Positions 4,027 through 64,000 of a stretch of DNA of 64,000 bases are shown here, one piece after another. The notes under the pieces are model-generated. The model had not been told where the DNA came from. It ran no database searches and saw nothing but the letters and a program-made list of their open reading frames with translations. The stretch comes from Raja brachyura (taxonomy: Eukaryota): NCBI GenBank assembly GCA_963514005.1, contig OY740804.1, positions 14,880,001 through 14,944,000 on the forward strand, read 5' to 3'. A program made the translations under genes and the position numbers. Positions within the stretch are counted from its first letter, which is position 1. Each line of letters starts with the position of its first letter.

Positions 4027-4094
4027 CCAGGAATGCAGAAATAGTCAACATGATCCCAAATAAGCAGCGTTCTGGTGGAGTTGTCCCAGTGTCA
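4027..4094 (-). CDS. DRAM2: DRAM2 coding exon 2 (68 bp): (S)DTGTTPPERCLFGIMLTISAFL(G)
   Basis: minus-strand acceptor tttctccttcacAG (4096-4095) and donor GTaagg (4026-4025); phase 2 start fits the preceding exon; peptide matches the DRAM-family SDTG..PE.C.FG motif. Confidence 0.93.
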
Positions 4095-14472: not shown

Positions 14473-14603
14473 CTGATGTACGGCACCAATGGATCAACGT
14501 GATGCAACGTGACAGCTGTAATGAAGGAGAAGACGAAGGCGGCTCCTGACCAGATGACCAATGCAGCCGGAAGGAAGCTCATCCCCTGCTGGAACCACCA
14601 CAT
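14473..14603 (-). CDS. DRAM2: DRAM2 first coding exon (131 coding bp): [43 protein letters not shown](S)
   Basis: ATG at 14603-14601; N-terminus closely resembles vertebrate DRAM2 (MWWFQQG.SFLP.ALVIW); donor AG|GTcagt at 14472; probable acceptor tttctttccttctgatAG at 14662-14661. Confidence 0.96.
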
Positions 14604-15244
14604 CTCCTCCGTCAGTCCAGGGTTTCGACTCTCCAGAGAAAAATCACCACCCAACTCAATCTATCAGAAGGAAAGAAACACAATACCAGGCTTCAATGTA
14701 TGTGCAAAGTGAGCGACAGAACTAACTGTGAACAAGTCTTGCTCAGCAACAGCTTGCTGTATTTTCACTTCCCCATTTACCGATTGAACTTTATCCTCCC
14801 ACACATTTAGCGGAAACAGGCTTTAAAGTCGTCTGCATTTCACATCCCTAAACATGTGCAAAGTTTCACAGAGAAGGCGTAGGGGGTTTTCTCACACCTG
14901 CACTCTTTGGAAGTGGCACAGAGTATTTTGCCCAGAGAAGGGAAATCGAGTACTAGAGAACATAGATTTAAGGTAAGGGGGAAAGATTTAATAGAATCCA
15001 GAGGGGTAACTTTTTTTATACCAAGGGTCTTGGGTGCATAGAATGAGGAGGTAGTTGAGGCAGGTACTATCGCAACATTTAAGAAACATTCAGACAGCTA
15101 CATGGATAGGATAGATTTAGATGTTTATTTGCCAAATGCAGACATGGGGGGGGGGGGGGGGGTACTGGTGCGACATGTTGATTGGTGTGGGCAAGTTGGG
15201 CCAAAGGGCCTATTTCCAACTCTGTATGAGTATGACTCCAAGAC

Positions 15245-27279: not shown

Positions 27280-27800
27280 CTTTGCAACAACCTGGCTTTC
27301 TAGCCTCCAGAGTGCGGTCCTCAGCCGAGCTCGCAGCCCAACCTAGTACGGCTCGGACCAAAATCATAGAGCGGAGCCTATGGTCATTGGCTCGGACGAC
27401 GATGATGCATCAAAGATCATAGAGCGGAGCCGCTCGCTAAAGGATCTTTGGAGCGGAGCTCCCGCTCTATGAACTTTGATGTGCATTGTCTCGGCGGACG
27501 ACAAGTGATTGGACATTTGTTGGACGTTGCGTTATCTCATTGGCTGCTGACGGCCCTCGGGTACAGGGCGCGATGCCTGGGCGCTCGAGCTGGTGGCGCG
27601 CGAGCGGACACGAGCTCGGCTGCGGACAGCGCAAGCGCCGACGGTTCCCGCCCAGGAGAGCGCGCCTCGTATCGCAGCGAGGACGGCCCGTTGTTGTGGC
27701 GACAGGAGAGTGGGTGGGGGTGGGTAAGGTGTGCCAGAGGCAAGGTCACGCGGTGGCGGGAAAACGTCGACTGGCTGTAGAGGGTGAGGTGTCCAGGGAT
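27280..27800. promoter_or_regulatory. CpG-island-like promoter between the divergent DRAM2 and SYCP3-like genes
   Basis: sharp rise in GC and CpG in non-repeat DNA; reverse CCAAT boxes (ATTGG) at ~27508 and ~27539; GGCGGGAA E2F-type motifs at 27645-27652 (minus) and 27755-27762; candidate plus-strand donor gg|GTaagg at ~27724. Confidence 0.65.
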
Positions 27801-28151
27801 AGGGGTGAGGTGATTCCGGATGGGGTAGATGTGTCCGGGGGTGAGGTGTCGGGGAGTAACTATGAGTCGCGAGGAAGGAGCGTGAGGTGTCGGTGGACGA
27901 GGGGTCAGGGGTGAGGTATCGGGGTGGGCGTGAGGTGTCGAGGGTGATATGTGGTCAGAGGGAGCGTGAGTTGGCGAGGGGAGGGGTGTGAGATGTTGAA
28001 GAAGAGGGTGAGGTACCGAGAAGGGGGTGAGGTATTGGGTGAATAGTTGCGGGGGTGAGGTGTCGCGGGGGGGGGGGGGGGGGTGTGAGATGTTGAAGAA
28101 GAGAGTGAGCTGCCGAGAAGGGGGTGAGGTATTGGGGGAATGGGTGTAAGG

Positions 28152-37199: not shown

Positions 37200-37415
37200 G
37201 TAGACACAAAACGCTGGAGTAACTCAGTCGGAAGAAGGGTCTCGACCTAAAACCCCACCCATTCCTTCTCTCCAGAGATGCTGCCTATCCCACTGAGTTA
37301 CTCCAGCATTTTGTGTCTACTTTCGATTTAATCGTTTCATACCAGCCCGCGCTGAGTTACTCCAGCATTTTGTGTCTACCTTCGATTTAAACTAGCATCT
37401 GCAGTTCTTTCCTAT
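37200..37415 (+). mobile_element. short Penelope-terminus-derived insert
   Basis: agacacaaaacgctggagtaactcag with inverted, duplicated ctgagttactccagcattttgtgtcta; TGGTTTGTGTA on both flanks; degenerate hammerhead motif at ~37228-37260. Confidence 0.7.
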
Positions 37416-38021
37416 TTATTGGTTTGTGTAACTGTCAGCAGGAAGGAGTAATATTGGCAACAGAGCTCACCCTCTGATGTCTCGCAAAGTCTTGACATTT
37501 TTTTTCAGCATTGCTCCTTTCTTTGGGGATTGTCACTGTATGCAGATAGTATGTCAGACCCTTCCTGCCATATTCCTCATAGTTGGCTCTCTTGCTACAT
37601 AGCATGTGCTTTCTGGCAATGATCCCAGCCACTAACGCCTTGGAGTTCAAGAATGTCGACATGGATATTTCTCTTCTCTCTTTATTTATCTCTTTTTCCT
37701 GATCTCTCTTTTCTCACTTTTCTCCTCTCTCCATCACAGCCTGGCAGTCTTTGTGAACCATTGTAGACTTAGTTTCTTTCTGGCAGTGTCAGGGACTCTG
37801 CACAGAAGGACTATTACCAGCATTTGATTTCTTTTAAAACGATATTCAAAGAAAGCATTTTATTTCAAATTAAAGTAACGCTAATGACCAGCTGGATGCC
37901 TGATGTCACAAGCTGACTTTTGTTTTGAAAAGTGTTATTGCTTTTTTGGATGGTTTTGTCCCCACATTATACTGAAATGTGCTATAACTTTCTATTTGTT
38001 CCAGATTTGATTGACTGAAAA

Positions 38022-38151
38022 ATGGCTCATAAAACAACAGGACGAAGAAATTCTGTTAAAAACCAGGAGAAAAAAACCTATGATTCATTGTATGGATTCA
38101 GTGAGGAAAATGAGAAAAAGTTGGGATGCAGCTATGAAGATGAAAAACTAG
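38022..38151 (+). CDS. SYCP3-like (synaptonemal complex protein 3 family) first coding exon: MAHKTTGRRNSVKNQEKKTYDSLYGFSEENEKKLGCSYEDEKL
   Basis: acceptor tttctatttgttccAG (38003-38004), ATG 38022 in aaaATGg context, donor ag|GTaaag at 38152 (phase 1); YGFSEENEKKLGCSYED resembles the SYCP3 N-terminal YDF..E.KK.LSGSE.D motif. Confidence 0.7.
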
Positions 38152-38457
38152 GTAAAGCACAGTTAAGTGCTTTAAAAATAATCTAAATTATATTTATTAT
38201 TCTGTTTTCGTTATGTGAACTGGCCAGTAAAATCCATCAATACCTGCAGCCTTTGAATATAACCATGTTAGACAAACCTTCACCAATAGAGTAGTTTCTA
38301 TGAAAGTGTCTTATAGCTAATCTATAGCCCTGGATTATGGTGTGTGGAAAGGAGAATATGTGGTTGAATATTGCCCTCTAATTACAGCAATAAGTTCATT
38401 GTGTTGGGCTGTGGACCCAATTTTTTTTTTTAATGAGGAGCAAGGATTTATTGAATA

Positions 38458-39004
38458 CTAGACTAGTTCACACGGGAGGGCTGAAATTCAAACTTCCACC
38501 TCTGGTTGGTGGGCTGGCAGTTGACTCGCGGCTATTCCTTGAAATTCCATTTCAAGCAGAGTGCAGGCCACCAAATTCAAATTAAGTTTCCTACCATATA
38601 AGCAGGGTGCAAGGCCACCAAATTCAAATGCAGTTTCCTACCATTTCAAGCAGGGTGCAAGGCCACCAAATTCAAAAGCAGTTTCCTACCATTTCAAGCA
38701 GTGTGCAAGGCTACCAAGGTGACTCTCTCCCCCATCTTGCAGAGACCCACACTTCTGGGTTTTATAGTCCCTCCCCCCCCCTCCCACCAGACGGTGAATG
38801 ATAGGAGAGAGAATCTCAACATTTTTAAAACACTAATAACTCTTTTATTTTCTATCCATGGGAAAAGTCCTCTTGTTCTGCACACCGGAGGGGGACTCTG
38901 AGTAAGATGGCCAAAAATCACAGCCGTAAGTGGTAGCGATGTTTCTAAAATCAATATGAAGTGCAAACAGGAAGTGGTCATGATGAGACTTTTAATTATA
39001 TAAA
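38458..39004 (-). mobile_element. non-autonomous Helitron-like element with internal ~41-bp tandem repeats
   Basis: minus-strand 3' end CTAG|T at 38458; shares tcacacgggagg with the 21738 copy; 5' end A|TTTATATAATTAAAAGTCTC (TC apparently mutated); repeats at ~38550-38720. Confidence 0.55.
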
Positions 39005-39551
39005 TGACCTTATAACCTTATCCATGTTAATCATTCAATATAACCAATATAACCTTATCCATGTTAATCATTCTTGATGGGTGTGCAGAGTGAATACTAC
39101 TTTATCTCTATTACTAAAGAGTGGAAGATGAATGGGGTTGTTGTGGAGTAGAAGGAAGGAAATTAGGTAGAAAAAAGGGATGGAAAAATATGATCTTGGG
39201 GCAGAAAAAGAAAAGTGGGGAAGGGTAGCAGGTGAAAAGGAGAGAGAGAATGGGTAGAGCTTGAATGGCGGTTTGGAGGATGAGAGAAAATAGAAGAAAT
39301 AGTGAAGGACAAAAGGAGGACAAGTTGTAGAGATGGTAAAGGGAGCCTTAAGAGACAAAATAATGTGTGTAGGAGGAAAACAGGGATATGGCGTATTAAA
39401 AAGGAAGGAAGCAGAATAGCAACATTGACTAGAGCAAAGTATGAGGGAGCAATTAGAAAATATGAGAGGAGGAGAAGGGCATGGATATAAAAATGACAGG
39501 TAAATGAAGTATTGAAGAAAGAGCTATATAAATGAAGTATTGAAGAAATAT

Positions 39552-39592
39552 GATGGTCTGAAGAAGGGTTTCGGCCCGAAACGTTGCCTATC
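39552..39592 (+). ncRNA. minimal type I hammerhead ribozyme motif of Penelope origin
   Basis: gatggt-CTGAAGA-a-gggt[ttcg]gccc-GAAA-cg-TT-gcctatc: conserved core, stem II with UUCG loop, palindromic AACGTT stem III, stem I arms pair. Confidence 0.65.
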
Positions 39593-42585
39593 TCCTTCGC
39601 TTCTTAGATGCTTCTGCACCCGCTGAGTTTCCCCAGCTTTTTGTGTACTATTGATGAAAGAGAGTAGTTCTGATTTATGAAGGGAAATTGGAGAATGGAC
39701 TGCAAGCAAGGTGAAGTTAGATGGAATGGTTGAAAATATTTGGAGAGAAGGAAGAGAGCACCACTTTGGGAAGCTCCAGAATAGCGAATGTAAGAATAGT
39801 GTGGGAGAAGATCATAAAGATAGGATGGGAAGGAAATATAATGGTTGTAGGATGGGGCAAAGGAAGATGAAGAAAAAGAGAGGAGAGAGTCAATGGTCAT
39901 GGTAATGAATGCAGAAACATGTTGGGAGTCTCTCACCAAACTTAAAGATATACAATGGGATTGTAGTGAATGGGCACTCAGCTGCTCCTGTGGAATCTGT
40001 TGGGAATCAAATTCCTGAGATGGACAGAGACGGGGGAAGAAAGACTGGATGGGAGGAAAAGGAAGAGTACAAGAATAGTTGGGAGTAATGTGGAGAGAGG
40101 AAGTTGTGCAGAAAACAAAAGGAATGAGAGAGAGGGGAAAGAAAGAGGGATTTACAGAGAAGTGAGGAGTATGGAGTAAATGGGGTACAAAGAGGCTTGC
40201 ACAGAGATAGGAGAATGAAGAGTGTTTTACTATCATATGTATCAAAACGGGATAATGAAATTCATACTTGCTGCAGCACATGTTTGTAAACACATTACTC
40301 AATAGATAATATAATATTGAGATATATCAAAGGCCCAAGATCTGGATCTAATCCATTATTAATTCATATGCTTTGGATTAGAAACATAGAAAATAGGTGC
40401 AGGTGTAGGCCATTCGGCCCTTCGAGCCAGCACTGCCATTCAATTATGATCATGGCTGATCATCCAAAATCAGTACCCCATTCCGGCTTTTTCCCCATAT
40501 CCCTTGATTCCCTCAGCCCTAAGAGCTAAATGTAATTTAATCTGACTTCAGTCTGACTTGGCAATAAAAGAGGTAGAAAAGAAAATCAATATTGAAATCA
40601 GATCTGTCTCCCTCCAAGGGTTCAGACTTCTCTCTCCAAGGGTTCTTTTTGTTGTAGCTACCCTAAAACATGTCTAACATGCAAGCTTAACAATGAATGT
40701 CCAAACTATTTTTAGAAAACTGAGGATGTGAGAATCTGAATTTGTAAGATGTGTCTCCTGCGCTCAGGACCCACATTTCTCACAATACGGCTGTTCACTC
40801 TGTGACCGAATAATTTTTCTCTGGGTTTTCCGGTTTCTTTCCACATCTCAAAAATGTGGGGGGTTGGTAGATAAATTGACAAGTATAAATTGCTACTGTT
40901 GTATAATTCGATTACACAATTGATGGGAATGTGATGGGAAGGGTGGAATTGCTCGGTGAGCCATAATGGACTTGATGGGTTTAATGACCTATCTACGTTG
41001 TATGAAAATATGTGCAATTGGTAAATGTTGTACAGAGATCAATGTATGCAAAAAATCTATACGTCAGTTAGGTGCAAATGTTTTTGCAGTCATTAAGCAT
41101 CGGTGAGGAGATAATATAAGCAGTTTAATCTGTACCTGAAGAGGTACGAGTTAATCAAACTAATGAACTGCTGCTGCTAATTTACAATAAAAAACAAAAT
41201 CTTGGAGTAACTCAATGGGTCAGGCAGCATCTCTAGAGGACATGGGTAGCCAACATTTCGGGGTGGAAACCTTCATGCTATTTGTAGTAGGGGGCAGAAA
41301 CCATGAAAAGAGGTGAAGGTAGGATGAAGCCTGGCAAATGATAGGTGGATACAGGTAAAGGGGATTTTGTTTCCCACATCGGTGGACAAAGGGTAGAATT
41401 AAAAAGGAGACAAAAGGCTTTCTTCTTCTTCTTGCATATGGCATGCACAGCCTAAAGTTGTAGGACAACTTGTTCTATTTGATCTTATGTGATTGTGCAC
41501 GCCGGGTTGATTGCATTCGTCAAAACAGGGCGGACCACGTGAAGGTCGCATTCTTCCACCCATCAAAAAGCTACAAGAGAGAAGAGGAGTGAAACACGAA
41601 GCCAGAGGAAGCGATGTAGGTGGAAGAGACAGAAGAAGAGGAAAGTAAGGCATGACATGAGCAAATAGGCTCCATGTCGGAGAAGGTAAAGGGATCCAGG
41701 CTAATTTTGGCAAATTGGATCTTAAATTGATATGGTGACAGGAAGCAGACAGTAATAGTGAAGATAGACAAAAAATGTATTGTAGGAGGACTGTTAACAA
41801 TCTGATATGCACAATTAGGTAGGACTCTGGGAATTACTAAGGAACAGAAAGACTGAGATGTACATGTACAAGGATCCCTGAAGGCAGCAAGACAGGTAGA
41901 TACGGTGGTTAAGAAGGTACAGGGGCTACCTGCCTTCATTTGCTGGGGCAGACACTGTATGAGCAAGGAGATTATGGTTCAGCTTGATAAAAATTGCTTG
42001 GTGGACTACAACTGAAGAAGTACATGGTTCTGGTGTCACACATTTGGAAGGATTGATTGGATAGAGAATTGGAGTCACGGAAGGAAGCAGACGGTGATGG
42101 TGGAAGGTTGTTTCTTGGACAGGTGGTCTGTGACTAATGGACTGCCTCCATTAGCAATGGATCAGTGCTGGGCTCTTTGCTGTTTGTCGTTTTTTTATCA
42201 ATAATTTGGATGAGAATGTACGTCATATTTATCGTTTGCATATGACACAAAAGGCATCGTAGGTTATCGAAAATTGCAGCAAAATCTTGATCGGTTGGGC
42301 ATGCGGGCTGAGGAATGGTTAATGGTGTTTAATACAGATAAATGCGAGGTGTTGCATTTTGGGAAGTCAAACCAGGGAGGGGGGATCTTTGCATGGCGAA
42401 GGCTCAAGTGGGAACCTGACTGAGAAGCATAAATGGGCTAGACAGTATTATAACAAACTATAACAAGAAAACAGTGTTTTAAAAGAAATTGTAAGAGATT
42501 TAGAGGGCTCTTGCACTTTTACACCACAGGATGATTAAAATCCGGACCACAGTGCTTGAGGGAATGGTGGAGGCAAGCACTCTAA

Positions 42586-42881
42586 AGGGCCTGTCCCACT
42601 TAAGCAATTTTTTCGGCGACTTGCCGGCACCTGTCATAGCTGCAGTAGGTCGCCGAAAGTGTTAAAAATGTTGAAAATCCAGCGGCGACCAGAAAAAGGT
42701 ACGACTCTTTGGGCCACATGTCACGGGGTGACGTCTGTATGGTTGTGAGTAGTGGCCCAAAGAGTCGTGCCTTTTACAGGTCGTCGCTGGATTTTCAACA
42801 TTTCGAAAATTGTCGTCGACCTGCTGCGACAGACGGATGCTGGCAACTCGCCGAAACATTTGCGTAAGTGGGACAGGCCAT
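42586..42881. mobile_element. PIF/Harbinger-like MITE
   Basis: TIRs AGGGCCTGTCCCACTTA / TAAGTGGGACAGGCCAT, extensively palindromic interior, TAA on the left flank; inserted in a CR1 3' region. Confidence 0.75.
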
Positions 42882-43812
42882 TTGCAACATTTAAACACTT
42901 GAAATGCCATGGCATGGCTGTGCATAGACTAAGTGCGGGGAAATAAGTACGATGACTGACATATAAATACTAGATCAAGGGGTGTGTTTCTATGCTGCGT
43001 GATTCTATGGTTGCTCACTGATCTCACTTTTCAGGATTTCAGAAGATTATTGTATGCACCAATGTGCCTGTCCCTGCAGAGCTCCACGGGGGAATAGCTT
43101 GGATTAGAGCAGCAAATGTCATGGGAACTAACATTTGGCATTAGGGTACAGCAGTCAGGTAGAAGGGGAGCTTGCTGAGCCCTGTAACTGAGATTTCTTC
43201 CCAATCTTCCAAATTTGAGAGAATGAAGATAACAAATAATATGCCACCCACTAGGTGGCAGCAACAGTAGAAAGAGAAACAGTCAAAGGTTTCAGTCAAA
43301 GATCCTTCATCAGAATTGAAATCATGACAAAACAAGTTAGTTTTCAGTTGAGGATGCGAGGATGGGGATTGCGAGGATGGGGATTGACTGATAGAATAAA
43401 GGGAATATCTTAGTTAGGGTAAGACTAGGATTCCCTTCGTATTATCCAGTTTACAAATAATTCCAGTGAATATGTTGTTTAGGATTGTTAGGGAGAGTAA
43501 AAATAAAGAGAGAGGTAAAAGCTTTGAAATACACGTGGGAGCCAACGAAAACTGAAACCAAAAGGAATGCTGGAAATGCCAGTGGAATAGTATCTGTGGA
43601 GAGTTAAAAAATGAATAATATTACAAGCGGATAAACCTTACAGCAGAACTAGCTATTTCGGATACAAACAGAGAAAACAAGTTCACTGAAATTGTTGAAT
43701 ATGATGTTGAATGCTGACAGCTACAACTTGACCAGATAGAAGGCTTGGTGCTGTTCTCCAAGCTAACATTGGGCGTTGTTGGAATAGTGCAGGAAGCCAC
43801 AAAGAGGTCGGT

Positions 43813-44692
43813 AGGGGCGCTGCAATCCAGCAGCCCTGCCAGCAGCGTGTTAGTTTTTTCAACTTTTAAAATTTTTTTAGTGTGTCATAATGTGTGTTTA
43901 CAATGTTTCTTTGTGTATCTTGTATGGGGGGGTAAGGGGGAAACCGTTTTGGTCGCCTCCTCCACGGAGAGGCGACTTTTTCCATGTCGCCTCCCCCGTG
44001 GCCTAACAGCAAGGTTCCACGTGTGGCCTTTCCCGGAGACGTGCCCGGGGCTTCAGCGGCGGGTGCAGCGTGGACTCTCGTTGCGGAGTGGGCGAGCCCT
44101 CGCCGGAGGGGAGGGTCCGCGGCAGTCTGAAGCTGCGGTCTGCGGAGCTCCAGCTGGCGCGCGTCCGCAGCATGGGATCCCTCATTGGGGACCCAGGAGG
44201 AGAAGAAGCTCCGACCGCCGGCCCGTGGCCTACTTCTATCGTGGGCGCGGCGGTGATTTACCATCGGGAGCGGGGTCCCTCATCGAGGACCCCTAGAGAG
44301 GATCTCTGACCGTCGGCTTTGCGGTCTGCAGTGCTTCTGCCTGCGGCATGGCGGGGACTTTAAATCTTCGACCTGTGGCCTACACCAACCTGAAGCCGTG
44401 GTCTCGGTGGGGAAGCACCAATTCAGGACTTGCCTGGACTTTATCTTGTCTGAACATCTGGACGCCCGCAGCGGCGGCTACGGAGGGTTGAGGTCTCGAC
44501 CCCGGGAAAAAATGGAGGAGGACTGGGCAAATTGTGTGCCTACCACCACAGTGATGAATGCTGTGGTGGATGTTTGTGTTAAATTTTTAGTATGTTTTTT
44601 GTGTGTTCTTTTTTCATTGTACCGCTGCTGGCAAAGTCATATCACTTGCACTTTATGTGCAAGTGATGAATAAAACTGATATTGATATTGAT
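43813..44692 (+). mobile_element. non-autonomous LINE-derived element with GC-rich core and (GATATT)n tail
   Basis: same architecture as 25161-25777; interrupts an older Penelope-like remnant (~43250-45460). Confidence 0.55.
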
Positions 44693-45469
44693 AAACAGAA
44701 GGTCAGAGTGGGAGTGAGATAAGAAATAAAAGTGATAGCTAACAGGAAGCTCAGGGTTATTCCTAAAGACCGAACAAAAGTGCTACTGAAGTTATCACCT
44801 ATCTGCATTTGGTTTCTCCAAATAAGAGGAGACTACATCGTGAGCAATATAAGCTGTACACTACAGTGGTAGAAGTACATGTAAAATGCTGGTTAACCCT
44901 GATAGGACATTTTGAGCTATGAGATGGTGGCAAGGGAAGAGGTACCAATGCATTTGTTACATGTACTATGGTTGGATGAGAAAGTGCTATGAGAGGGAAA
45001 TGGTTTCGCCAGACTTCTGAAAGGATAGGAAAGGATATTGTTGTTGTACTGCAGATCCATTGAATGCAGAGGCGGGTGGACTGGAAATTGAGGACCTGAG
45101 GAACTCTATCCTGGCTCTGGTCCAGTGCAAAGGAGGGAAGAGCAGAAGAGCAGATGTAGATTATAGGCAGCAGAGAGCTTAATCAACTATGTTAGACTGG
45201 AAGGCATGATTAATCTCAGAGGTCTTGTAATCAGAGCTGATATGATGAGGTCGGAGGAACTTGGCGAATGGAATGAAATCCTTCCAGGAGGCAGTGGGAG
45301 GAAGAATAGTCAAGATATTTGTGAAAGTCTATGGGTTATAATAGATGTTTGTTGCTGACTAATCCTCTGAAATGGAAGACAGAGATCCAGAAAGGGAAAG
45401 GAAGAATCGGAGATGTGATGGGTGCAGCATGGTGGAAATTGCTGTCAAAAACAAATTGTCAAGCTCCAT

Positions 45470-46589
45470 ATGAGTGCAGAAAGCAAGACCTTCTACGCCT
45501 GCTTGGATGAGACACTGTCTAGAATCCCCAGGGAGGATAAGATTCTTCTCTTGGGAGACTTCAACGCCAGGGTCGGCCGGGACGAACATGTCTGGAAGGG
45601 TACCATAGGCATCGGGAACATCAACTCCAACGGAGCTCTGCTTCTCAGCAAATGTGCACAGCACGACCTCACCATCACTAAAACCCTCTTTCGCCAGAAA
45701 AACAAACTTAAGGCATCTTGGAGACACCCCCGCTCCAAACAGTGGCATCTCATTGACTGTCATTGTACGAGCCAGGGACCGCCGTGACGTGAACATCACA
45801 AGGGCCATGATTGCTGGACAGATCATCGCCTCATCCGCACCATGATGTCCATCAAACTCAAGAGGAAGAGGATTCAAAATAAGCAGATCCGGCCAAGGCT
45901 GAAGCTTGAAAGCCTAGAAGTAACCTACCGAGCAGCGACTTCGGGCTTCTCTTGTGGAAAGCCTCCAATAGGAATATCCTGATGACATTGAAGAGCACTG
46001 GAAACGGCTCAAATCCACCATCCTTGATACCTGCAAAACGATCTTTGGGTGCAATTCCAGAAAACATCAGGACCGGTTTGACGAGAACGACAGAGATAGA
46101 ACAGCTCATCTCCAAGAAAAGGAAAGCCTTTTTTGCCTGGCAAAATGATGTAACCTGCAAGGCCAAAAGAGAGGCTCACTCCAGAGACAAGACGAATGTC
46201 CAGAGTCGGGTGAGGGAGTTAAGAACTCTTGGTGGGCAGAAAAAGCTCTGGAAATCCAGAGACTGGCAGACTCGGGTGACACCAGAGGCTTCTTCAGCGC
46301 TACTAAGGCCGTCTATGGTGCAAGCTACTACGGTGTAAACCCCCTGCTCTCAAAGGACAGGCAAGAACTGCTGAAGGACAATGTCCATAAATGCCCAATG
46401 GGAGGAGCACTTCCAGGAACTCCTCAACTGTGACAGCACAACTGAACCAGACATTACCGACCACATTCCGCAGAGTCCCATCAGAGAAGACACCGAAGAA
46501 CCTCCCACTATGACAGAGGTTCAAGATGCCATCAAGAGCCTTAAGAACAACAAGGCCACCGGTCCTGATGGGATCCCAGCTGAGATTTT
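45470..46589 (+). mobile_element. RTE-clade LINE, 5' part (endonuclease and tether)
   Basis: FY..LD......DKILLLGDFNARVG, N.NG..LL..C, WRHPRSKQWHLID, LKNNKATGPDGIPAEI. Confidence 0.9.
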
Positions 46590-47624
46590 CTTTTTTAAAA
46601 AAAAAAAATTATTTATTTATTTAAATTTTTTATTAGAAGTAATGTACAATAATATAAACCAAAAATAACATAGTACATTTCATGTACCACTTCTTGTTTT
46701 TAAATTTAATAATAGAAAAGTATCAGGAGCAAGAAAAAGAAAAGTAGAGAAAGTTAATTAAGATAGTGATATTAATAGTATGTGAAAAAGTGGAAAGAAA
46801 GAGCCCATAAAGATGTAAAGCCCGAGAAAGAGAAAGAGAAGAGAAAACAGAGGAAAATATAAATAAAATAAATTAAAATAAAAGGGATATACCTGCTTCG
46901 TGTCTTTACACCCCTCACCCTGTCCTGAAACAGTTTATTTACAGAATTATATGTTGCACCTTATGCTTGTAATAAGTCGATAAATAGAGACCAAATCTTT
47001 AAGAATTGGTCTGATTTGTATGCTAGGACGAATCTCATGTCTTCGAGGTGTAACGTTTCAGACATATTTGAAATCCACATTTTTAGCGTTGGTGTCGGTG
47101 TATTTTTCCAGAATTTAAATTTAAGTATACATTTTTTTGCCGTTACTAAGCCATAATTAAGGAAACTCTTTAGGAACGAAGTCAGCTCAAAGCCGGCTTC
47201 CATTGTTCCAAAAATAATCAGTTCTGCGTTGGGTTTCAGTTTTATTTTAAATAATTCTGTAAAAATTTCAAAATTTAATTCCAAAATTTTTGGATTTTTA
47301 TGCAAAAAACAAAGGAATGTGCCATGGTTGCATCTTGAGATAAACATTTATCAGAAATGGGGGAGACATTTGGAAAGATTTTGTTCATTTTAGTTTTCGA
47401 ATAATATAATCTATGTAAAATTTTGAATTGAATTAAGATATGCCTTACATTGATCATTTATGCACATATAGCAAGTATTTATCCCATCTCTCTTTTGACA
47501 TTTTTATAGATAGTTCTTGTTCCCAATCTCTTCTAATTGTGTCAGATGATGGTATTTCTATATTTAAAATGATATTATACAAGTATGATATTAAGTTAGT
47601 TGAGTCCGCCTTTCTGTTCATAGC
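46590..47624 (-). mobile_element. L1/Tx1-like LINE 3' fragment A
   Basis: IQFKILHRLYYSKTKMNKIFP....(C)DKC.....T..H.F..C zinc knuckle and F.KIW..FI C-terminus; A-rich 3' tail toward 46590. Confidence 0.85.
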
Positions 47625-49475
47625 ATATTTATTTTATTAGAAGCAATTGTACAAGGAGAAAGTAATCGACATAACAATTATACAATTTTAGTACAGCTTC
47701 AGTTTTAAGATTTTACGAGACCAAGTGCAGACCCATTGGGTCTGTTCCCCCAACGTGTAGTTGCAGGAGGGGGGGGGGGGGCTGAGGGAGGCGGCATGCG
47801 GCGTCACATACACTAACTACCCCCGCATACACACTAACTACCCCCTTGATATATTAATATTGTTAATTTGCTCCTTTTACCCCATAACCGCCCTATCCAC
47901 TGACACATAGCCCCCAACTCGCAGGTCCGTCTAGAGAGGGGGTGGGGGGGGGGGTAGAGAGTGTGGGCAGAGAGAGAACGGGGAGATACGGAGAGAGAGG
48001 CAGAGACAGAAGGGCAGGAGACAGAGGGAGAGGGAGGAGAGGGGAAGAGAGAGAGGGGGCTTAGAAGGGGGGAGGGGGAGGGGGAGTGGTGGGAAAGGAG
48101 GGGGAGAGGTGGGGTAGAATGGAGGAGAGAGGTGGAGGGAAAATAGTAGGAGTGTGGAGGGGTGAAGGGGGTTTAGGGGAGGGAGGGTGGGGGAGGGCAG
48201 GTGGTTGGGGGAGAGAGAGGGAGGGGGAGAGAGGGGGGAGATGAAAGAGGGGGGGAGGGAGAGAGAGGAGAGGGGGAGGGGGAGAGAAAGAGTGAGGAGG
48301 GGTGGGGCGGCAGACCGAGCGCAAGGCACGGAGCGATCTGAGGACGGTGAAAAGCAGCAGGGGGACCAGCCGATCGTGGCGTCCACCAGCGTGACAGAGC
48401 CGGGCCAGGCCGGGGGGGGGGGGGGGGGAGTGGAGGAGAGGGGAGTAGGTGAGAAGAGATGTGGGGGGGGGGGGGGGGGGACCGGGCTGCCAAATGAAGA
48501 GGGGGAGAGAAGCGGCATCTGACTCTGGAAGCCCACAGGTGGAATGAACGCGCAGGGCTTCACGAGCTGCGCCAACAGTGATGAGAAAATTCAGCGTGTG
48601 ATCCTATAGCGGAACAGAGCTGTATGAGGATAACTTATGAGGAGTAGATTCAGCGCATGAGGAGTCGCTGGCCCAAGATCTGTAGAACAAAGAAGCTATA
48701 GCGGAACGGAGCTGTAGAATGTTTGTTCTGCAGAACTTTCTCGATCTTTCTGCGCATTCAATCCACAGCGGGGGGGGGGGCCTGGAGGTAGGTGGGCGTG
48801 GATTGGTGGGCATGTGGGCATTGTGACGTCAGCAGCTGGCGAGCGACGTTTATATTTAAAAATTTGAGTTTTGTGATCAATTTTATTCAAAATCTGGGGA
48901 AATAATTGACCAAGGAGTGGATTTCTGAACGCAAGTTAAATCCCTACCGAAATTGTAAAAATCTCTGCGTTTTTGCGTCTGGTTTTCGAGGAGATACGTT
49001 TCACGTGCAAATTAACACACACACACATTCACACCGAGTTTTAAAAGCGTATAGATATGATAAACTAATAAGTAAATCAGAAAAAAGGAAAGAAGGGAAA
49101 GGAAGAAGAAAGGAAAATAAATGAAAGAATTTCTTTCAGTGGAAAAAAAAGTGGAGAGATATCCCACTACCCTTCCCTACACCCGCTCACCCGACCCTAG
49201 CGTCGGTTTTGAATTTGTGTCAACCAAATTCAATGAAAGGAGACCATATTTTGGAAAATGGATCTGATTTGTCAGACAAAACAAGCCTTATTTTTTCTAA
49301 ATGTAGTGTCTTGTCATTTCTTTGATCTACGTCTTCACTATGGGAACTGTTATCTTTTTCCAGAGTTTAAGTTTTTTTGCAGTTATTAAACCATAGTCAA
49401 GGAAGCGTCTTTGGAATATCGTTAACTTAGGGCAGCCCTCTGACATTCCTAACATTATTAATTTTGAATCTGACT
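47625..49475 (-). mobile_element. L1/Tx1-like LINE 3' fragment B (interrupted by a Helitron at 47716-49055)
   Basis: FLDYGLITAKK..LWK motif; 3' end shares ttattagaag with fragment A; whole L1 block bounded by CCAGCTGAGAT(T/C)TT at 46576-46589 and 49476-49489. Confidence 0.75.
47716..49055 (-). mobile_element. non-autonomous Helitron
   Basis: minus strand: A|TCTATAC...hairpin CAGACCC-AAT-GGGTCTG...CTCG|T; no TSD; removal gives contiguous ttttatatgat. Confidence 0.75.
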
Positions 49476-49514
49476 CCAGCTGAGATCTTAAAGGAAGGTG
49501 GACCGGAACTCCTG

Positions 49515-52455
49515 TAATAATAATAATAATAATATATTTTATTGTCATTACACATAAGTACAATGAGATTTGGTTTGCAACTTCCATCCGATGTCATAAC
49601 TTAATCGACAAATAAAATTTAGGTTTAGATACCCCGAGAACAAGGTTTATAAAAACGAACATTAGACCAGTAACATCAACACAGACTAAAGTGTGAGGCT
49701 GGGGGAGACAGTCCATGGGGGTGGGGGGGTACTCAGCAGGGCCAGTTCAGAGCCGCTATAGCTCTGGGAATGAAGCTGTTCCTGAGTCTGGAGGTGCGGG
49801 CATAGAAGGCCTTGTAACGTCTGCCGGAAGGGATTAGTTCGAACAGTCCATTACAAGGGTGAGAGGAGTCTTTATGTATGCTGATGGCCTTCCTGAGGCA
49901 CCGTGTGTGGTAGATGCCCTCCAAGGCTGGTAGCGGTGTCCCAATAATCTGTTGCGCTCTGTGGACAATGTGCTGAAGTGCTCTCCTCTCCGCCTCCGTG
50001 CAGCTGAGATACCACACAGAGATGCCATACGTTAATATGCTCTCTGTGGTGCAGCGGTAGAAGGTCGTCAGCAGCTGTTGGGGCAGACCAGTCCGTTTGA
50101 ATGTTCTTAGGAAGAACAGTCGTTGTTGTGCCTTTTGGACCAGCGCAGCGGTGTTGGTGGACTATGAGAGGTCCTCTGAGATATGAGTGCCCAGAAACTT
50201 GAAGCTGGACACTCTCTCCACACTGTCCCCGTAGATGGAGATTGGGGCGTATTCCCCATTCAGTGACGTCCTGAAGTCGATAATCAGCTCCTTGGTCTTG
50301 GAGGTGTTTAGCGACAAGTTGTTCCGTGAACACCAATCCGCCATGTTCTGCACCTCCACTCTATAGTTTGTTTCATCACCGTTGGTGATCAGCCCGATCA
50401 CCGTTGTGCCTTCTGCAAACTTGACAATGGTGTTGTTGTCAAATGCAGGGACACAGTCGTGGGTGAAGAGGGAGTAGAGCATGGGGTTCAGTACACAACC
50501 CTGTGGTGTGCCGGTGCTCAGGGTGATAGTAGAGGACAGGTGCGGCCCCAGTCTCACTACCTGCGGTCGCTCCGTCAGAAAATTCAGGATCCAATCGCAT
50601 ATCAGTGAGCTGAGGCCTAGCTGGTGGAGTTTGGTGGTGAGCTTGGTGGGGATGACTGTATTGAAGGCAGAGCTATAGTCAATGAAGAGCATCCTCACGT
50701 AGGTGCCCTGTCTTTCCAGGTGGGTCAGGACAGTGTGAAGAGCCACAGAGATGGCATCCTCTATGGATCTATTTGCCCTTTATGCAAATTGAGAATCCAA
50801 TGATGCAGGGATGCTGGATTTGATGTGGGGGAGGACCAGTCTTTCAAAGCACTTCATTGGCATTGGAGTTAGGGTAACCGGGTGGTAGTCATTCAGGTTG
50901 GTGACTTTAGACTTCTTTGGCACCGGCACTATGGTAGCTGTCTTCAGGCACATGGGGACCGTTTCCAGAGATAGAGGCAGGTTGAAGATCCTCGTAAATA
51001 CCTCCGTACAGCACAGTGCTTTAGTACCCTACCCTGGATTCCATCCGGGCCTGCAGCCTTGCGTGGATTGATCCTACGCAGAGCGCACTATACCTCCTGT
51101 GTGCTCAGTGTTAAGGCCTGTCCCTCGCCATGGTCGGGGTTGTTCCTCTCCTGGTGGTGCTGCCAGTTTCGAAGCGTGCGAAGAATGTGTTTAATTCATT
51201 GGCCAGTGTGATATCACTGTGGGGGCAGGTGGGGCTGCTCTTGTAGTCAGTGATGTCCCTGACACCCTGCCGTAAGCGTCTCGTGTCCGCGGTGTTGAAG
51301 TGGTCTTCCACCCTTTGCCTCTGGATGTCTTTGGCCTTTTTTATGCCTTTGTTCAGGTTTGACCTGGCAGCACTGTAGGCAGAAGTGTCCCTGGATTTAA
51401 AGGCAATGTTGTGTGCCCTTAGCAGATTCTGAACCTCCTCGTTCATCCACGGTTTCTGGTTTGGGAACATCTTTATTTGCTTGTCCACTGTGACAGTCTC
51501 CACACAGCAGTTGATGTAGGAGAGCACAGTGGATGTGTACTACTCCAGGTCTACCTCTGTGCCACTGGTAGCCTGTTGTGCAAACAGGTCCCAGTCGGTG
51601 CGATCAAAGCAGTCCTGGAGTTGTAGGGTGGCGTCCTCGGGCCATATTTTGACCGTCTTTATTGCAGGTTTGGTCTTGCGGATGAGGGGTTTGTATGCAG
51701 GCAGTAGAAACAGTGAGAGGTGATCGGATTGTCCCAGGGATGGGCAGGGGAGGGCTCTGTACGCGTCCTTGATGTTGGTGTGCACTTTATCCAGCGTGTT
51801 TGAGCCCCTGGTAGGGCACTGCACATGCTGGTGGGATTTGCGGAGTGCAGCTCGTAGGTCCACCTGATTAAAGTCCTCTGCAACAATGAAGGCACCATCG
51901 GGGTGAGCATCCTGCTGCTTTCTGATGGCCGAGTGCAGCTATGCTAATGCTAGGTTAGCATTAGCCTGTGGTGGGATGTGTATGGCCATGATGATAATCA
52001 CAGTAAACTCCCAAGGCAGTTAAAACGGCCTACATTTAAGCAGTAGGTATTCCAGGTCTGGGGAACAGTAGCTTTCTACTGCAGTGTGGTTGGTGCACCA
52101 GTCCTTGTTGATATAGATGCAGAGCCCGCCGCCCATGCTTTTACCGGAGTCCTTTGGTCTCTCAGCACGATACAGTGACCGGCCGGTTAAGTCCACAGCC
52201 CCGTCGGGAACCAGCGCGCTGAGCCAGGTCTCTGTGAAGATCAGCACACAGCAGTCTTTCAGGGATCGCTGGGTGTTGATCTTCACAGAGACCTGGCTCA
52301 GCTGGGTGTTGATCCAGAGCCTCACCTCATCCAGCTTGTTGGTGAGTGACCGGACATTCGATGGAAAGACGCTTGGTAGCGATGGTCTTTGTGGAGCCCT
52401 CCGTAGCCTGTCCTGCACCGCCGCTCACCTTCCACGTTTCTGCTTCCTCTCCCGG
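49515..52455 (-). mobile_element. near full-length Rex1/Babar LINE, decayed
   Basis: [83 protein letters not shown] (FADD mutated), PSGRRY; (TTA)n tail. Confidence 0.93.
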
Positions 52456-53888
52456 TGCATTACCACATCCACGCTCTACTCCTCCAGGTCTGGGAAAACG
52501 ATCTCCCCTCAGAACTCAGTGATGCTCTAATAGTGACCATTTTCAAGAAGGGGGACAAGGCTGAATGTGGAAACTACAGGGGCATCTCGCTCTTGTCAAC
52601 AACAGGCAAAGTCCTTGTTTGTGTCCTCGCAAACCAACTTCTACCACTGTCTGAAGAGGTACTTCCAGAATCACAGTGTGGCTTCCGCCCATCTAGAGGT
52701 ACAGCAGCCATGATATTCACAGCATGCCAACTCCAGGGAAAATGTTGTGAACAAAAGCAGCCTTTGTGCATGGCCTTCATGGAGCTGATAAAGGCTTTTG
52801 ACTCGGTAGACCATATTATCAAGGTATGGTTGCCATGACAAGTACATCAGAATATTGAGGCCACTACATGATGGCACGTTGGTCATAGTGCTCAGCAACT
52901 GCGGCTCTGAGTCCAAGTCCTTCACTGTGGAAACGGGGGTCAATCAGGAATGCATCATTGCACCCATCCCGTTTGTCATCTTCATTGCTGCCATACTTCA
53001 CCTCATTAGTGAAGAGCTGCCACAGGGGATCCCAATCCGCTACAGAACTGACGGTGGGCTCTTTAACCTTAATAAGTTGAAGGCCAAGAGCAAAGTCAGT
53101 GACACCGCCATCATGGAGCTTCAGTATGCGGACGACTGCGCCATTGCAACACACTCCGCAGAAGACCTCCACGACACCCTGAATGCCTTTGCCAAGGCAT
53201 ACAGAGCCATGGGCCTAGCCTTAAACATCAAGAAGACCCAGGTCCTACATCAACCTCCACCCAACTAGCCATCTACCCAGCCCACTATAAAAGTGGACGA
53301 CTATAAAAGCTGACATCGACTCTGAGGTCAACCATCGCCAGAGTTGTGCCAGTGAAGCCTACGCCAGACTCGGGAAAGAGTCTTTCAAGACCGAGAGATA
53401 AAGGCTAAAAAAAAACATGCTGGTTTACAGAGCCGTTATCCTCCCCACTCTGTTGTATGGAGCTGAGTCATGGACCACTTACAGCAGGCACCTGAGAGCC
53501 CACAGCGGGGTCAAAGAAACGTTTCAGGGACAACATCAAGAGTCAAGAGTGTTTTATTGTCGTATGTCCTGGATGGGCAATGAAATTCCACATCACATCG
53601 AGCAACTGGGAGCACATTGCACTGGACAAGCGCTCCTAGAGGAAATCCGTGCAGGAAGAAACTGCATGTCATGAAACGGAACTACGCCGTGTCGCAGAGA
53701 CAAAGCGACGGCACCATAAGGAGAGAAAGAAGGGGGCTCGACGACTACCAACCACCGCCAGTCTCCACTGCACGCATTGCACCAAAGTGTGCGCATCGGC
53801 CTCTACAGACATCTGCAGACCCACAAATAGACAACCGTATGGAGAGGAGAGGCCAGTCATACTCGTTTAGAGTGACCGCAGATGATGA
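52456..53888 (+). mobile_element. RTE-clade LINE, 3' part (RT and C-terminus), continuing 45470-46589 and 49490-49514
   Basis: IVTIFKKGDKAECGNYRGISLLS, LPESQCGFRP.RGT..MIF, KAFDSV, LQYADD, YRAVILPTLLYGAESWT; GATGATGA tail. Confidence 0.92.
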
Positions 53889-54425
53889 GCAATATATCAA
53901 TGTACTGGAATAAAGAGTTAAGGAAAGAGATTCTGAGTATGACTGAAATAAGGAATATCAATATCACTCATCTCTAATCATGTTTAAAAATGTGTTTTTC
54001 TGTTTAGTGCGTCACACTGATAACTTTACACATTTCCATATTGCATCACATCCGCCCTGTTCTTCCCACTTACTCAGTCATGAGCACCTGAGAGGCCTAG
54101 CCTCGCAGAAACCAGGTGGGCGCCAAGTGTGAAGCACCACAGCATATTAGGGGCTTTCCAAGAGGGCGGTGGAGGCAGGTTCTCCGGATGCTTTCAAGAG
54201 AGAGCTAGATAGGCCTCTTAAAGATAGCGGAGTCAGGGGATATGGGGAGAAGGCAGGAACGGAGTACTAATTGGGCATGATCAGCCATGATCACATTGAA
54301 TGGCAGTTCTGGCTCGAAGGGCCTTATGGCCTACTCCTGTGCCTATTGTCTATTGGGTCTAACTTAACTGAATTCTGCTCAAGATGTATATCCCTATGCT
54401 TTACCCTTACTAAGCTGAATAAATA

Positions 54426-54691
54426 CAGTGCATTCAGAAAGTATTCAGACCCCTTCACTTTTTCCACATTTTGTTACGTTACAGCCTTATTTTAAAATGG
54501 ATCAATGCTTCCTTTTTTTATCATCAATCTACACACAATAGCCCTGAATGAAAAAGCGAAAACAGGTGTTTAGAAATGTTTGCAAAGTTATTAAAAATAA
54601 ATAACTGAAATATCACATTTACATATGTATTCAGACCCTTTACTCAGTACTTTGTTGAGGCACCTTTGGCTGTGATTACAGCCTCAAGTCT
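54426..54691 (+). mobile_element. solo left end of a second Tc1-family (IR/DR) element
   Basis: TA + CAGTGCATTCAGAAAGTATTCAGACCCC with inner repeat GTATTCAGACCC at ~54627; no matching right end seen. Confidence 0.8.
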
Positions 54692-55719
54692 AAGGGGTTG
54701 GGAAAGATAAAAAATTTCACATATTCAAATATGTTGTTACGAATATAACTAGTAGTGTAGGCGAAAACTCCATGAGCCATAATTGCCACATACATACCCA
54801 AAAGTAGAAATGTAGAAAGTTACAGTGTCTCCTTGTACCAATCAAGTGAGAAATTCAAAATTCTATATTTTGAAAATGGGCAAAGCAAAAAGTAGCATGT
54901 TCTCTAAAAAGGCTTATCCTAAAATAATTGATCAGGAGGGTGTGATTTTCAGTCAGTACGTCTGTATCAATCAGTCAGTGAGCTCACGGTCCGGAACCCT
55001 TCTCTATTACCCCACTACATAAAAACAAAGTGTTAATGCCTCTTCAAGGTCTACTAATCCACCCGTAGCTTCAGTTGCAGGTACAGCTGAATGGATTTGG
55101 CGCTTGGGCGACGCTATGAATGTATATGAATTTTTAAAATCCGATATGTTTAAATCATTCAAAAGCTACAACCACAACGTGATAAATAATACTAAATAAA
55201 ACTGAAGCAAATAAAGGCAAACAGAAGAACTAACCTTGAAGGTGAGAGAAAACAACACACATAAACTTATTTTTAAAAATTCATATAACATCCCTAAATG
55301 ACGGGTACAAATTACTAAATAACGTGGGTGAACAAAAATGCTGGAGAAACTCAGAGAGTTAGATGCTGCCTCACCCGCTGAGTTTCTCCAGCATTTTTGT
55401 CCACTTTCGATTGTTCCAGCATTTGCAGGTTAGCGGGCCAGGCGGCATCTGCGGAGGGAACGGACCAGGAGCCGCCACGGCCAGGGCTCCCCCCGCCCCC
55501 CCAACAGGAAGGAACCGCAGATGCAGCGTCTCTGCAAAATGCCGAATGATTCCGGGAATGCTGAGGCGAGAGGGTCAGAGAGGGAGTGATGGAGCGAGAG
55601 AGAGACGAGATGGGGAGCGCGAGAGAGCGTGCCAGATAGAGAGGGAAGGAAGGAGAGGTTGAAATGCAGATAGACACAGTGAGAGAGGGAGAGATGGAGA
55701 GAGAGGGAAGAGAGCGAGA

Positions 55720-55795
55720 GAATAATAAAATAACGTGGAATAATAAAATAACCTGGAATAATAAAATAACCTGGAATAATAAAATAACGTAACTT
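55720..55795. repeat. 18-bp minisatellite (AATAATAAAATAAC(G/C)TGG) x~4
   Basis: directly visible tandem copies. Confidence 0.85.
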
Positions 55796-56481
55796 TACCT
55801 GCACACCAGTAGAAGTCCCTGCTCGCGGTCCGGAGCCTTGTCAGTGAGTTTTAAGAAATTCCCCCGTGAATTGTATTCAAAGGAACGCGGCGTCATTAAT
55901 ACATGGTCAAAACACAATTACATTTACTGAGGAATGTGGATCAATGTATTGGTGACACATTGTATAACTGTTAAGTGCTAACACTGGTAGTTAACAAATC
56001 GTTTTCGTGTCATGGCCGATGCAGTGGTGACTCGTAACGATTATCCATGGTCGTTTAAAAAGAAAATCCGTATTTAACAACTCTGACTCCCTTCTTGTAC
56101 GGAAATTGGACATAAACTGAAAAGTAGGGGAACGCTGTCTACCTGCGTACCCCCCCATTTCCATTACTGAAAATATACTAGTTCTGTATTTTTAGTTTAA
56201 AATGGTGCTGGATGTGTTTTTACTGAGCAACAGATCAAATAACTACATTGCCTCTCTACCTAAGGGAAGAGGCTGTAACCTTGTTTGTAGAGAAAATGTG
56301 TTTTATGTTTTAAGTACAGCTAGGAATAAATGTACTAAATTTGAGCTGAATAAATTTTAAGATTTGATATTACGAAAAAGAAACTAAAGTTTGACTAATT
56401 AAAAAAATGTTACATTGAACCAGCTTTAGAGTATAGCTTCTCTGTGTCAGCATCCATTTATGAACATTTTTATATTTGTAG

Positions 56482-56569
56482 AGGAGGCTGCATTGGCACT
56501 TGGTAGGAAACGGCCAGCATCTAGTGCACGCACTCAGCAGGAAGAGGAAATGGACGACATTAATGTTGG
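56482..56569 (+). CDS. SYCP3-like next coding exon (88 bp): (E)EAALALGRKRPASSARTQQEEEMDDINV(G)
   Basis: acceptor tttttatatttgtAG (56480-56481), donor gg|GTatga (56570); phase 1 start matches the 38151 donor with an open frame; basic RKR, acidic run, then VG, as in SYCP3 just before the (G/N)EVQ.ML motif. Confidence 0.7.
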
Positions 56570-57324
56570 GTATGACAAGCTGAACAATAATTTTGTTGAA
56601 TTTTTATAGATTTTGTAGTTGATGCGGAATATAGTGAACATTGATACAGATCTCTGCTATCTTGCTTAAAGCTCAGGATATGTTATCCAGGATTGAGAAA
56701 AGCAGTACAATCAAATGTAAAAGTGGAAATTATAGCATTACATATAGAGTGAGACACGTTACCAATAGCTGCTGTACTAAGAAACTGGCATAGACTAATG
56801 TCTTCACTGCTGCTGCACACTGCATACCAGGAATTTAGTTGAGGACTCCTGTAAAATGAAACGGTTAAAGTAATCTAATGGCCATGCAGCATCATTTAAA
56901 ATGAGTCAAGGTCATGTGCAGAGGTTGCCTGTGAGGGCTGGTTTTAGGTAGGCTGGGGTAAATGAAGCACATGCTCAGCATTGAGATGCAAGGCTTGCAT
57001 GCTGAGTATGGGCGCCATTGGGATATCTGCTCCATATTTTGTCTTCTGTCTGAATCGTATGGTCTTTATCAATAATTCTTGTTGGAGGTGTTGGAAACTA
57101 TTGCTCCACCCATTTATTTACTGGATGCATAATTTTTTTCCAGCCTGTGACTTCTTCATGGAACAAGCTTAACACCCACAACAACCATTGAATTTGTTAG
57201 CATGGAAAAATTTCTGGGTTATGAGAGCCCTGATTCTTGATACATAGTGTATTCCTGAACCCTGCGTCTCAAGGCTGAGTAGCTACACTGCTCGCCTTGG
57301 CTCACCCAACATCAGCTCTCAAAT

Positions 57325-57830
57325 AGAAACAGAAAAACTGCAGATGTTGGAATCCTGAAGTGCTGGAGGAACTCAGCAGGTCTGGTAACATCTATGGAGA
57401 AAATGCATAGATGTTTAGGGTCAGGAATTCTCCACTTTCAAGTGATGTCACCCTACTCCTTCCCCTTCTTTCACACACTTATCTCAGTCCCAATTCCCCC
57501 ATGTCCTTTCGGTCTCCCCTTTTTCCTTTCCCCTTTCTATCCATATCCCTCCCTCCAGTTTTACATTTCACTCCTTTTATCACCTTGTCTGACACTCATT
57601 TGTCTCCTTTTCACCTCTAGTCTTGTCATTTACTACACCTATCTGCCAATAAATCCCCCCTCACCTGCATTCACTTGCTGGGCTTTGTTCTGCCCCCACC
57701 TCTGCTTTCCAGTGCCCTGTCCCCTACTTCTGTCAGTGCGAAAAAGGGTCCCAAACTAAAACATTACGTATATATCCATTCCCTCCACAGATGCTGCCTG
57801 ACCTGCTGAGTTCCTATAACACTTTGTGAT
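57325..57830 (+). mobile_element. decayed Penelope-derived element with inverted termini
   Basis: ctgcagatgttggaatc..gtgctggaggaactcagcagg at the left end and its inverse gatgctgcctgacctgctgagttcct at the right end. Confidence 0.6.
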
Positions 57831-63956: not shown

Positions 63957-64000
63957 AGGGGCTGTCCCACTGCGGCGACCGAATTCGCGAGTTCAGACGA
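63957..64000. mobile_element. left end of a Harbinger-like MITE (runs off the window)
   Basis: TTA + AGGGGCTGTCCCACT, same TIR type as 42586. Confidence 0.6.

Follow-up and report, generated by a model that had tools for sequence, protein, structure and literature searches.

In a 64,000-nt stretch of the skate Raja brachyura (assembly GCA_963514005.1, contig OY740804.1, positions 14,880,001 to 14,944,000; here, the window), we found two exons that encode the N-terminal part of a protein of the SYCP3 family. SYCP3 serves as a standard meiosis marker, and its vertebrate versions are handled as a single orthologue. We consider it probable that these exons form the 5′ coding end of an SYCP3 gene that belongs to a clade of its own (clade B), runs divergently from DRAM2, likely stems from the second round of vertebrate genome duplication (2R), is likely the sole SYCP3 of cartilaginous fishes, and serves the meiotic axis. 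This reading builds on what could be observed directly, that is, the exon structure, the adjacency of DRAM2, the family membership of the orthologues, the split into clades A and B in the trees, and the presence of both copies in sturgeon. The gene itself was already known; its identity as the sister copy of SYCP3 and the likely reciprocal loss appear to be new. A full-text literature search, which covered few subscription papers and yielded titles and abstract openings, returned no description of an A/B split of SYCP3 or of its linkage to DRAM2, and the only paper mentioning both sycp3 and dram2 dealt with a clinical gene panel.

Two exons and their relatives

The two exons had been proposed in a first-pass annotation of the window, and their positions, splice sites, phase 1, and open frame across 18,330 nt were all confirmed (Table 1). 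The start-codon exon (exon A) is bordered by an acceptor ending in TTCCAG and a donor beginning with GTAAAG, and the second coding exon (exon B) by TTGTAG and GTATGA; the frame remains open across their junction, giving a joined product of 72 residues. When exon A was the sole query, all eight candidates had E values of 2e-17 to 4e-13, with skate proteins on top (93% identity); seven were batoid proteins named SYCP3 or SYCP3-like, and one was unnamed. The joined residues are identical at 68, 68, and 67 of 72 positions to the full-length proteins of Rhinoraja, Amblyraja, and Leucoraja, respectively, which span the same exon junction. The assignment to the SYCP3 family is thus borne out by named skate SYCP3 and SYCP3-like proteins. 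Such an exon pair is far beyond chance expectation.

The idea that this gene had been hidden proved wrong, because its orthologues are already annotated in RefSeq as SYCP3 or SYCP3-like. The RefSeq SYCP3 proteins of skates, rays, sharks, and chimaera (e.g., XP_032898566, XP_055510713, and XP_078276558) are orthologues, with 67 to 68 of the 72 residues identical in the three skates, the same junction, and DRAM2 as a neighbor; their name implies an orthology to human SYCP3 that the trees reject (see below).

Searches by tblastn with ten relatives detected no further exon of the gene in the window (nothing else was better than an E value of 0.049) and no Cor1-domain exon within positions 56570 to 64000. 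The gene therefore continues past the window, and its later exons, including those for Cor1, are located beyond the window end. At the other side, the acceptor of exon A points to a further noncoding exon upstream. Judged by eye, the open reading frames (ORFs) within the intron between the two exons resemble retroelement fragments. Several skate and shark isoforms (P0002, P0003, P0014, and P0015; 208 to 210 amino acids) are without the same 33-residue coiled-coil block, a recurring skipped exon in database models.

Clades A and B and the probable duplication behind them

In a quick tree of 112 rows, from which 8 isoform or odd rows had been dropped, bony-vertebrate SYCP3 formed one clade (support of 98). 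A careful tree of 32 chosen proteins, with hagfish and three more invertebrate rows added, resolved two clades, namely, clade A (12 bony-vertebrate rows; 100/98) and clade B (7 cartilaginous rows and 8 ray-finned “SYCP3-like” rows; 100/97), which joined each other to the exclusion of hagfish (96/90). Inside clade B, the cartilaginous and ray-finned rows were sisters, matching the expectation from the species tree. Clade A includes tetrapods, coelacanth, lungfish, teleosts, and sturgeon, and clade B includes all shark, ray, and chimaera proteins seen, together with those of sturgeon, paddlefish, gar, bowfin, bichir, and some teleosts. The same shape was recovered in a core-only tree with 7 long rows removed and one row left untrimmed (B, 87/87; A, 98/98; A plus B, 86/81). 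In neither the careful nor the core-only tree did cartilaginous SYCP3 group with the SYCP3 of tetrapods, coelacanth, and teleosts, and in an approximately unbiased (AU) test, the topologies joining sharks with clade A or clade A with ray-finned clade B were each rejected (p-AU, 0.0078). Along similar lines, shark proteins are 68 to 70% identical to sturgeon B versus 54 to 56% to sturgeon A, and they share 11 diagnostic columns with B, 1 with A, and 5 with neither. As far as protein sequences can tell, SYCP3 of jawed vertebrates is split into clades A and B and the skate gene is a B gene, so that the earlier claim of a paralogue separate from human-type SYCP3 held.

Both copies occur in one genome in sturgeons and in no cartilaginous fish seen. 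Acipenser ruthenus carries SYCP3-A on a 70.0-Mb contig and SYCP3-B on contigs of 15.95 and 23.15 Mb, and A. oxyrinchus also has both. The proteins of gar, bowfin, bichir, whitefish, and cavefish (P0017/P0153, P0032, P0064, P0104, and P0172) are named plain SYCP3 yet fall in clade B. A fast tree of unnamed 50%-cluster representatives placed no tetrapod-like representative in clade B, most full-length members being inside one 50% cluster. In the ESM Atlas, Cor1 of P0001 clustered at 0.97, with no taxonomic resolution.

The neighbor of the skate gene is DRAM2, as had been claimed, with minus-strand exons 98 to 100% identical to skate DRAM2 across the first 43 residues. A DRAM query returned 106 matches, in which the informative names were all DRAM2, 2b, or 2-like and none was DRAM1; Frag1 led for the DRAM exon in the ESM Atlas, scoring under 0.9. 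The two genes had been described as head-to-head, of which the divergent orientation stands, but the start-codon exons are 23.3 kb apart. SYCP3-B and DRAM2 were on the same chromosome or scaffold (identical record sizes) in 20 of 20 cartilaginous species showing both, Chiloscyllium plagiosum, Scyliorhinus canicula, and Pristiophorus being the members of the 23 species that were not comparable. In addition, their RefSeq accessions were no more than 10 numbers apart for 12 of the 14 species that could be compared, which range from skates to the chimaera Callorhinchus. The pairing is old within cartilaginous fishes.

We take the human gene order to be CHPT1-SYCP3-GNPTAB-DRAM1. The SYCP3 of cartilaginous fishes lies outside such a CHPT1-GNPTAB-DRAM1 block, next to DRAM2, and in the parts of PMC10115646 that were available, the loop table has skate Dram1 and Gnptab on Leri_19C and Cept1, Dennd2d, Rabif, and Anks1a on Leri_24C. 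In its SI Table 3, linkage group E 2-alpha corresponds to LER19 plus LER22 of the little skate and E 2-beta to LER24, the two being sister segments of the second genome duplication. The little skate Sycp3 bears the identifier (ID) LE29484, close to Rabif (LE29472) and Anks1a (LE29474), with Chpt1 being LE15712; its chromosome was deduced from these ID neighbors. Together with the presumed human order, the E 2-alpha/2-beta assignment identifies B as the 2-beta copy and A as its 2-alpha counterpart, the synteny of the A side depending on that order and on the location of skate Dram1 and Gnptab on the 2-alpha chromosome. The trees put the duplication before the split of sharks and bony fishes and after that of jawless vertebrates (one hagfish row; support values as above). 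The origin by genome duplication proposed in the first-pass annotation is thus supported by the skate linkage table for the B side, and SYCP3-B likely arose in 2R.

Copy number, function, and competing readings

Every cartilaginous-fish SYCP3 seen, from 23 species, belongs to the clade B orthogroup, and NCBI or UniRef names it plain SYCP3 in 19 of them. No clade A protein from these species was present among the protein matches listed (the best 120 of 750 in the main search), where the cartilaginous rows were clade B in 15 of 15 cases. The clade A proteins of lungfish, coelacanth, and sturgeon, with bit scores of 266, 262, and 246, respectively, clear the cutoff of 243 for these best 120 matches, so a slow-evolving shark A copy should have shown up. 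Among 132 unnamed 50%-cluster representatives (length filtered from 150 listed), none was sister to all of clade A in the fast tree. In the little skate tables, which comprise differentially expressed genes only and form part of the supplement, the sole PF04803 gene is one “Sycp3” without a copy suffix, although -1 or -2 is appended to many other symbols. These data do not support the claim that the lineage has two axial-element proteins. The genome probably has no other SYCP3, an outcome that the first-pass annotation had listed as refuting; it would refute the second copy and leave the identity as a paralogue unaffected. That SYCP3-B is the sole SYCP3 of cartilaginous fishes appears to us quite likely. 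In Heptranchias perlo, one clade B protein (P0130) has two accessions on two contigs, which points to recent duplication or to haplotypes left uncollapsed.

Full-length orthologues (P0001 and P0005) matched Cor1 (PF04803) with an E value of 2.5e-51 (174 bits; cutoff, 32) and the human SYCP3 structure 4CPC with an E value of 7.8e-63, gapless over the core. In the accessible portions of the respective papers, human SYCP3 forms tetramers, which bind DNA via two basic patches and self-assemble via the Nt6 and Ct6 motifs (PMC4102245), and SYCP2:SYCP3 filaments are 2:2 (PMC6349405). Exon B contains an R/K patch of three residues that aligns with basic patch 1, and basic patch 2 is retained in clade B orthologues. 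Three of the six Nt6 residues (V, M, and L) and five of the six Ct6 residues are kept in clade B, the last residue of Ct6 having changed from F to M. An S/T-P motif ahead of basic patch 1 was considered and found not to be diagnostic (0 of 20 cartilaginous, 3 of 8 ray-finned B, and 40 of 91 scored clade A proteins).

A “Sycp3” primer has been used on cloudy catshark testis (PMC13637641, as far as its accessible text goes), and its forward sequence encodes a hexapeptide present in 11 of the proteins compared, all of them shark clade B. Catshark testis proteomics lists a protein named Sycp3 with Sycp1, Sycp2, and Hormad1 (PMC13052469). More surprising for a meiotic gene, SI Tables 4 and 5 of PMC10115646, available in part, include little skate Sycp3 (LE29484) in embryonic fin RNA with base means of 162 and 87 and log2 fold changes of 1.19 (pectoral versus pelvic) and −3.31 (anterior versus posterior). 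Such expression would be accounted for by read-through if the gene shares its promoter with DRAM2; the alternative is a somatic role. A meiotic function is suggested by the conserved motifs, and SYCP3-B is most likely the working axis protein of sharks.

Several points weigh against the reading that we prefer. The cartilaginous proteins and ray-finned SYCP3-like proteins were only weakly joined in the quick tree (support of 69). The AU-test groups were defined after the first tree had been seen, and the likelihood gap was identical in the two tests (13.64), which fits one collapsed branch, so that they are not independent. Dating used one long-branched hagfish row, with no lamprey, amphioxus, or tunicate sequence identified, and the A side leans on a presumed human gene order. 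The SYCP3-B and DRAM2 accessions are not adjacent in Hypanus and Carcharodon, and it is an assumption that accession order follows gene order; the 106 DRAM matches included no DRAM2 of sturgeon, gar, bichir, or eel, so that the linkage to DRAM2 described here is that of cartilaginous B genes. No clade A protein of gar, bowfin, or bichir was found among the matches listed, which makes further reciprocal losses possible, with loss and cutoff being indistinguishable. Cor1 is known here from the full-length orthologues of relatives, the R. brachyura exons in the window being N-terminal only. The last residue of Ct6 is M in 20 of 20 cartilaginous proteins versus F in 90 of 95 clade A rows. The fin tables, partial as they are, indicate that little skate Sycp3 is not germline restricted. 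Finally, the absence of clade A is not proven, since a fast-evolving or unannotated A copy would escape from the best 120 of 750 matches; the loss of B in tetrapods is likewise not proven.

The restriction to the best 120 of 750 matches would suit a scenario in which the gene is the clade B duplicate but skates also retain an unseen clade A SYCP3 near GNPTAB/DRAM1 and, hence, two axis proteins. Sturgeons do retain both copies, and the accessible parts of PMC10115646 report a higher ohnologue retention in cartilaginous than in bony fishes and a DRAM1/GNPTAB region in little skate. We nevertheless judge a second copy unlikely, given the complete lack of clade A rows across the 23 species among the matches listed, the plain name of the B gene in most of them, the single suffix-less Sycp3 in the partial little skate tables, and, in the accessible text cited above, the use of the B gene by shark researchers as their Sycp3 marker. 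It seems very improbable that we are dealing with the ordinary single SYCP3 of sharks, that is, a true orthologue relocated next to DRAM2 or a gene that predates the duplication, the A/B duplication being restricted to bony fishes. The database name, the apparently single copy, and the weak quick tree would agree with it, and 5 of the 11 columns shared by sharks and B match most outgroup rows, as expected of ancestral states; but about six have states absent from most outgroup rows, both alternative topologies were rejected, and a chance landing next to the paralogue of the presumed neighbor DRAM1 is unlikely. We give equally little credence to A and B being ancient paralogues that date to the first round of genome duplication or to a segmental duplication. 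The date hangs on a single hagfish sequence with a long branch (1.47 changes per site), the support for A plus B drops in the core-only tree, and the skate Sycp3 chromosome is known through ID neighbors in partial tables, but the flanking blocks are labeled 2-alpha and 2-beta of one linkage group in those same tables and hagfish fell outside A plus B in all three trees that contained it.

Under the clade B reading, an ancestral block with DRAM, SYCP3, and choline-phosphotransferase genes would have doubled into a 2-alpha block (DRAM1, GNPTAB, CHPT1, and SYCP3-A) and a 2-beta block (DRAM2, CEPT1, and SYCP3-B). A would then have been lost in cartilaginous fishes and B in lobe-finned fishes and tetrapods, with both kept in sturgeons. 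The B gene would be transcribed from a CpG-island promoter common to DRAM2. Like human SYCP3, its protein would form a coiled-coil tetramer with SYCP2, bind DNA via its two N-terminal basic patches, and polymerize end to end into the lateral element. We rate as slightly better than even the joint proposition that sharks build the axis from the opposite duplicate to that of mammals, birds, frogs, and coelacanth, through reciprocal loss with both copies in sturgeons; that the database SYCP3 proteins of cartilaginous fishes, gar, bowfin, and bichir are not orthologues of the human one; that the CpG promoter is shared with DRAM2; and that the gene is transcribed somatically.

Human and mouse SYCP3 (clade A; PDB 4CPC and 6DD8) likewise have a Cor1 coiled coil, two basic patches, and N- and C-terminal self-assembly motifs, and the identity to coelacanth clade A is 57 to 60%. 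The skate gene differs from them in its separate clade, in having DRAM2 instead of the presumed DRAM1/GNPTAB neighbors, and in the altered Nt6 and terminal M for F of clade B. The ray-finned SYCP3-like proteins (sturgeon, paddlefish, eel, and conger) belong to the same clade B but have longer branches and, at least in sturgeons, coexist with A. Monotreme SYCP3Y and rodent Xlr/Slx/Sly are also SYCP3-derived Cor1 paralogues, but recent and lineage specific, distinct from the A/B split. The available passages date the SYCP3Y duplication to the monotreme ancestor (PMC11710854), count three divergent platypus copies of SYCP3 (PMC5484699), and use “SYCP3-like” merely as a name (PMC4132317). The platypus proteins that could be placed (including P0238) fall inside clade A, so the SYCP3-like duplicates of nontherian vertebrates that had been invoked as a precedent belong, in monotremes, to a different event. 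Clade B fits the class of differentially retained 2R ohnologues, of which the available part of PMC10115646 counts 24 that persist in cartilaginous and ray-finned fishes but are gone from lobe-finned ones; it may or may not be among the 24. The same paper reports a bias to beta loss, and the likely alpha loss in sharks runs opposite to it.

If the split holds, comparative studies of meiosis and gene trees based on the “SYCP3” of shark, gar, or bichir set paralogues side by side. Nature would also have swapped one copy of a central structural protein for the other, each apparently sufficing for the axis in its own lineages; in sturgeons, A and B coexist and may share the tasks between them. The gene is annotated already, and the reciprocal loss of copies after a genome duplication is a familiar pattern; the case is thus relevant to specialists in meiosis and vertebrate genome evolution and involves no new mechanism.

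The interval between SYCP3-B and DRAM2

The start-codon exons of DRAM2 and of the SYCP3 gene both carry acceptors, which indicates upstream noncoding exons in both genes. Between them lies a CpG island with three reverse CCAAT boxes (27386, 27508, and 27539), a candidate promoter common to the two genes. A donor-site scan of the island gave five plus-strand sites and one minus-strand site at 7/9, none of them decisive. The depth of a DNA read run was 5 to 20 over the island versus 10^4 to 10^6 in repeats. Three contig runs guessed to be RNA and one run of unrecorded kind, compared with positions 27000 to 38400, were swamped by repeats and contained no splice joint among 15 listed of ca. 1,280. 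In the two bins that overlap exon A, the mean depths are consistent with coverage confined to the exon in two of three runs (7.0/6.9 and 4.7/4.6) but not in the third (3.4/7.8), which is no more than a hint of expression. The odd N terminus of the sawfish model was considered as a product of the island and found to be unsupported (E = 7).

Table 1. Positions of the gene features in the window
Feature	Position	Strand	Remarks
SYCP3 clade B start-codon exon (exon A)	38005..38151	+	17-nt 5′ untranslated region; ATG at 38022; 130 coding nt; 93% identity to skate SYCP3/SYCP3-like
Intron of SYCP3-family gene	38152..56481	+	GT-AG; 18,330 nt; phase 1
Second coding exon (exon B)	56482..56569	+	88 nt; basic patch 1 and acidic run; tblastn E value of 2e-14
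DRAM2 start-codon exon	14473..14660	-	ATG at 14603; Frag1 PF10277 E value of 4e-5, under curated cutoff; divergent from SYCP3 gene
DRAM2 second coding exon	4027..4094	-	68 nt
CpG island, candidate shared bidirectional promoter	27300..27900	.	Single copy; CpG observed/expected ratio of 0.83 to 1.12; between both start exons

E2F-type sites are known as silencing elements of germline genes. Both matches to an E2F-type 8-mer in the 64 kb fall inside the CpG island, on opposite strands (27645 and 27755); the motif was picked after the sequence had been seen, and a count of 2 in the window is not above chance (mean of 0.83; at least 2 in 17 of 100 shuffles). An AT-rich repeat of ca. 1 kb is present in four copies (25958 to 26991, 28151 to 29180, 29338 to 30313, and 60700 to 61736), which are 78 to 91% alike and in both orientations; it looks like a nonautonomous DNA transposon, and three of its copies flank the CpG island. 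An assembly gap of 163 N (22556 to 22718) lies amid purine-rich tandem repeats between DRAM2 and the SYCP3 gene, so the distance between the genes may be inexact. Within the DRAM2 intron, at 8329 to 9521, there are ORF fragments that, by eye, resemble a Tc1/mariner-type transposase.

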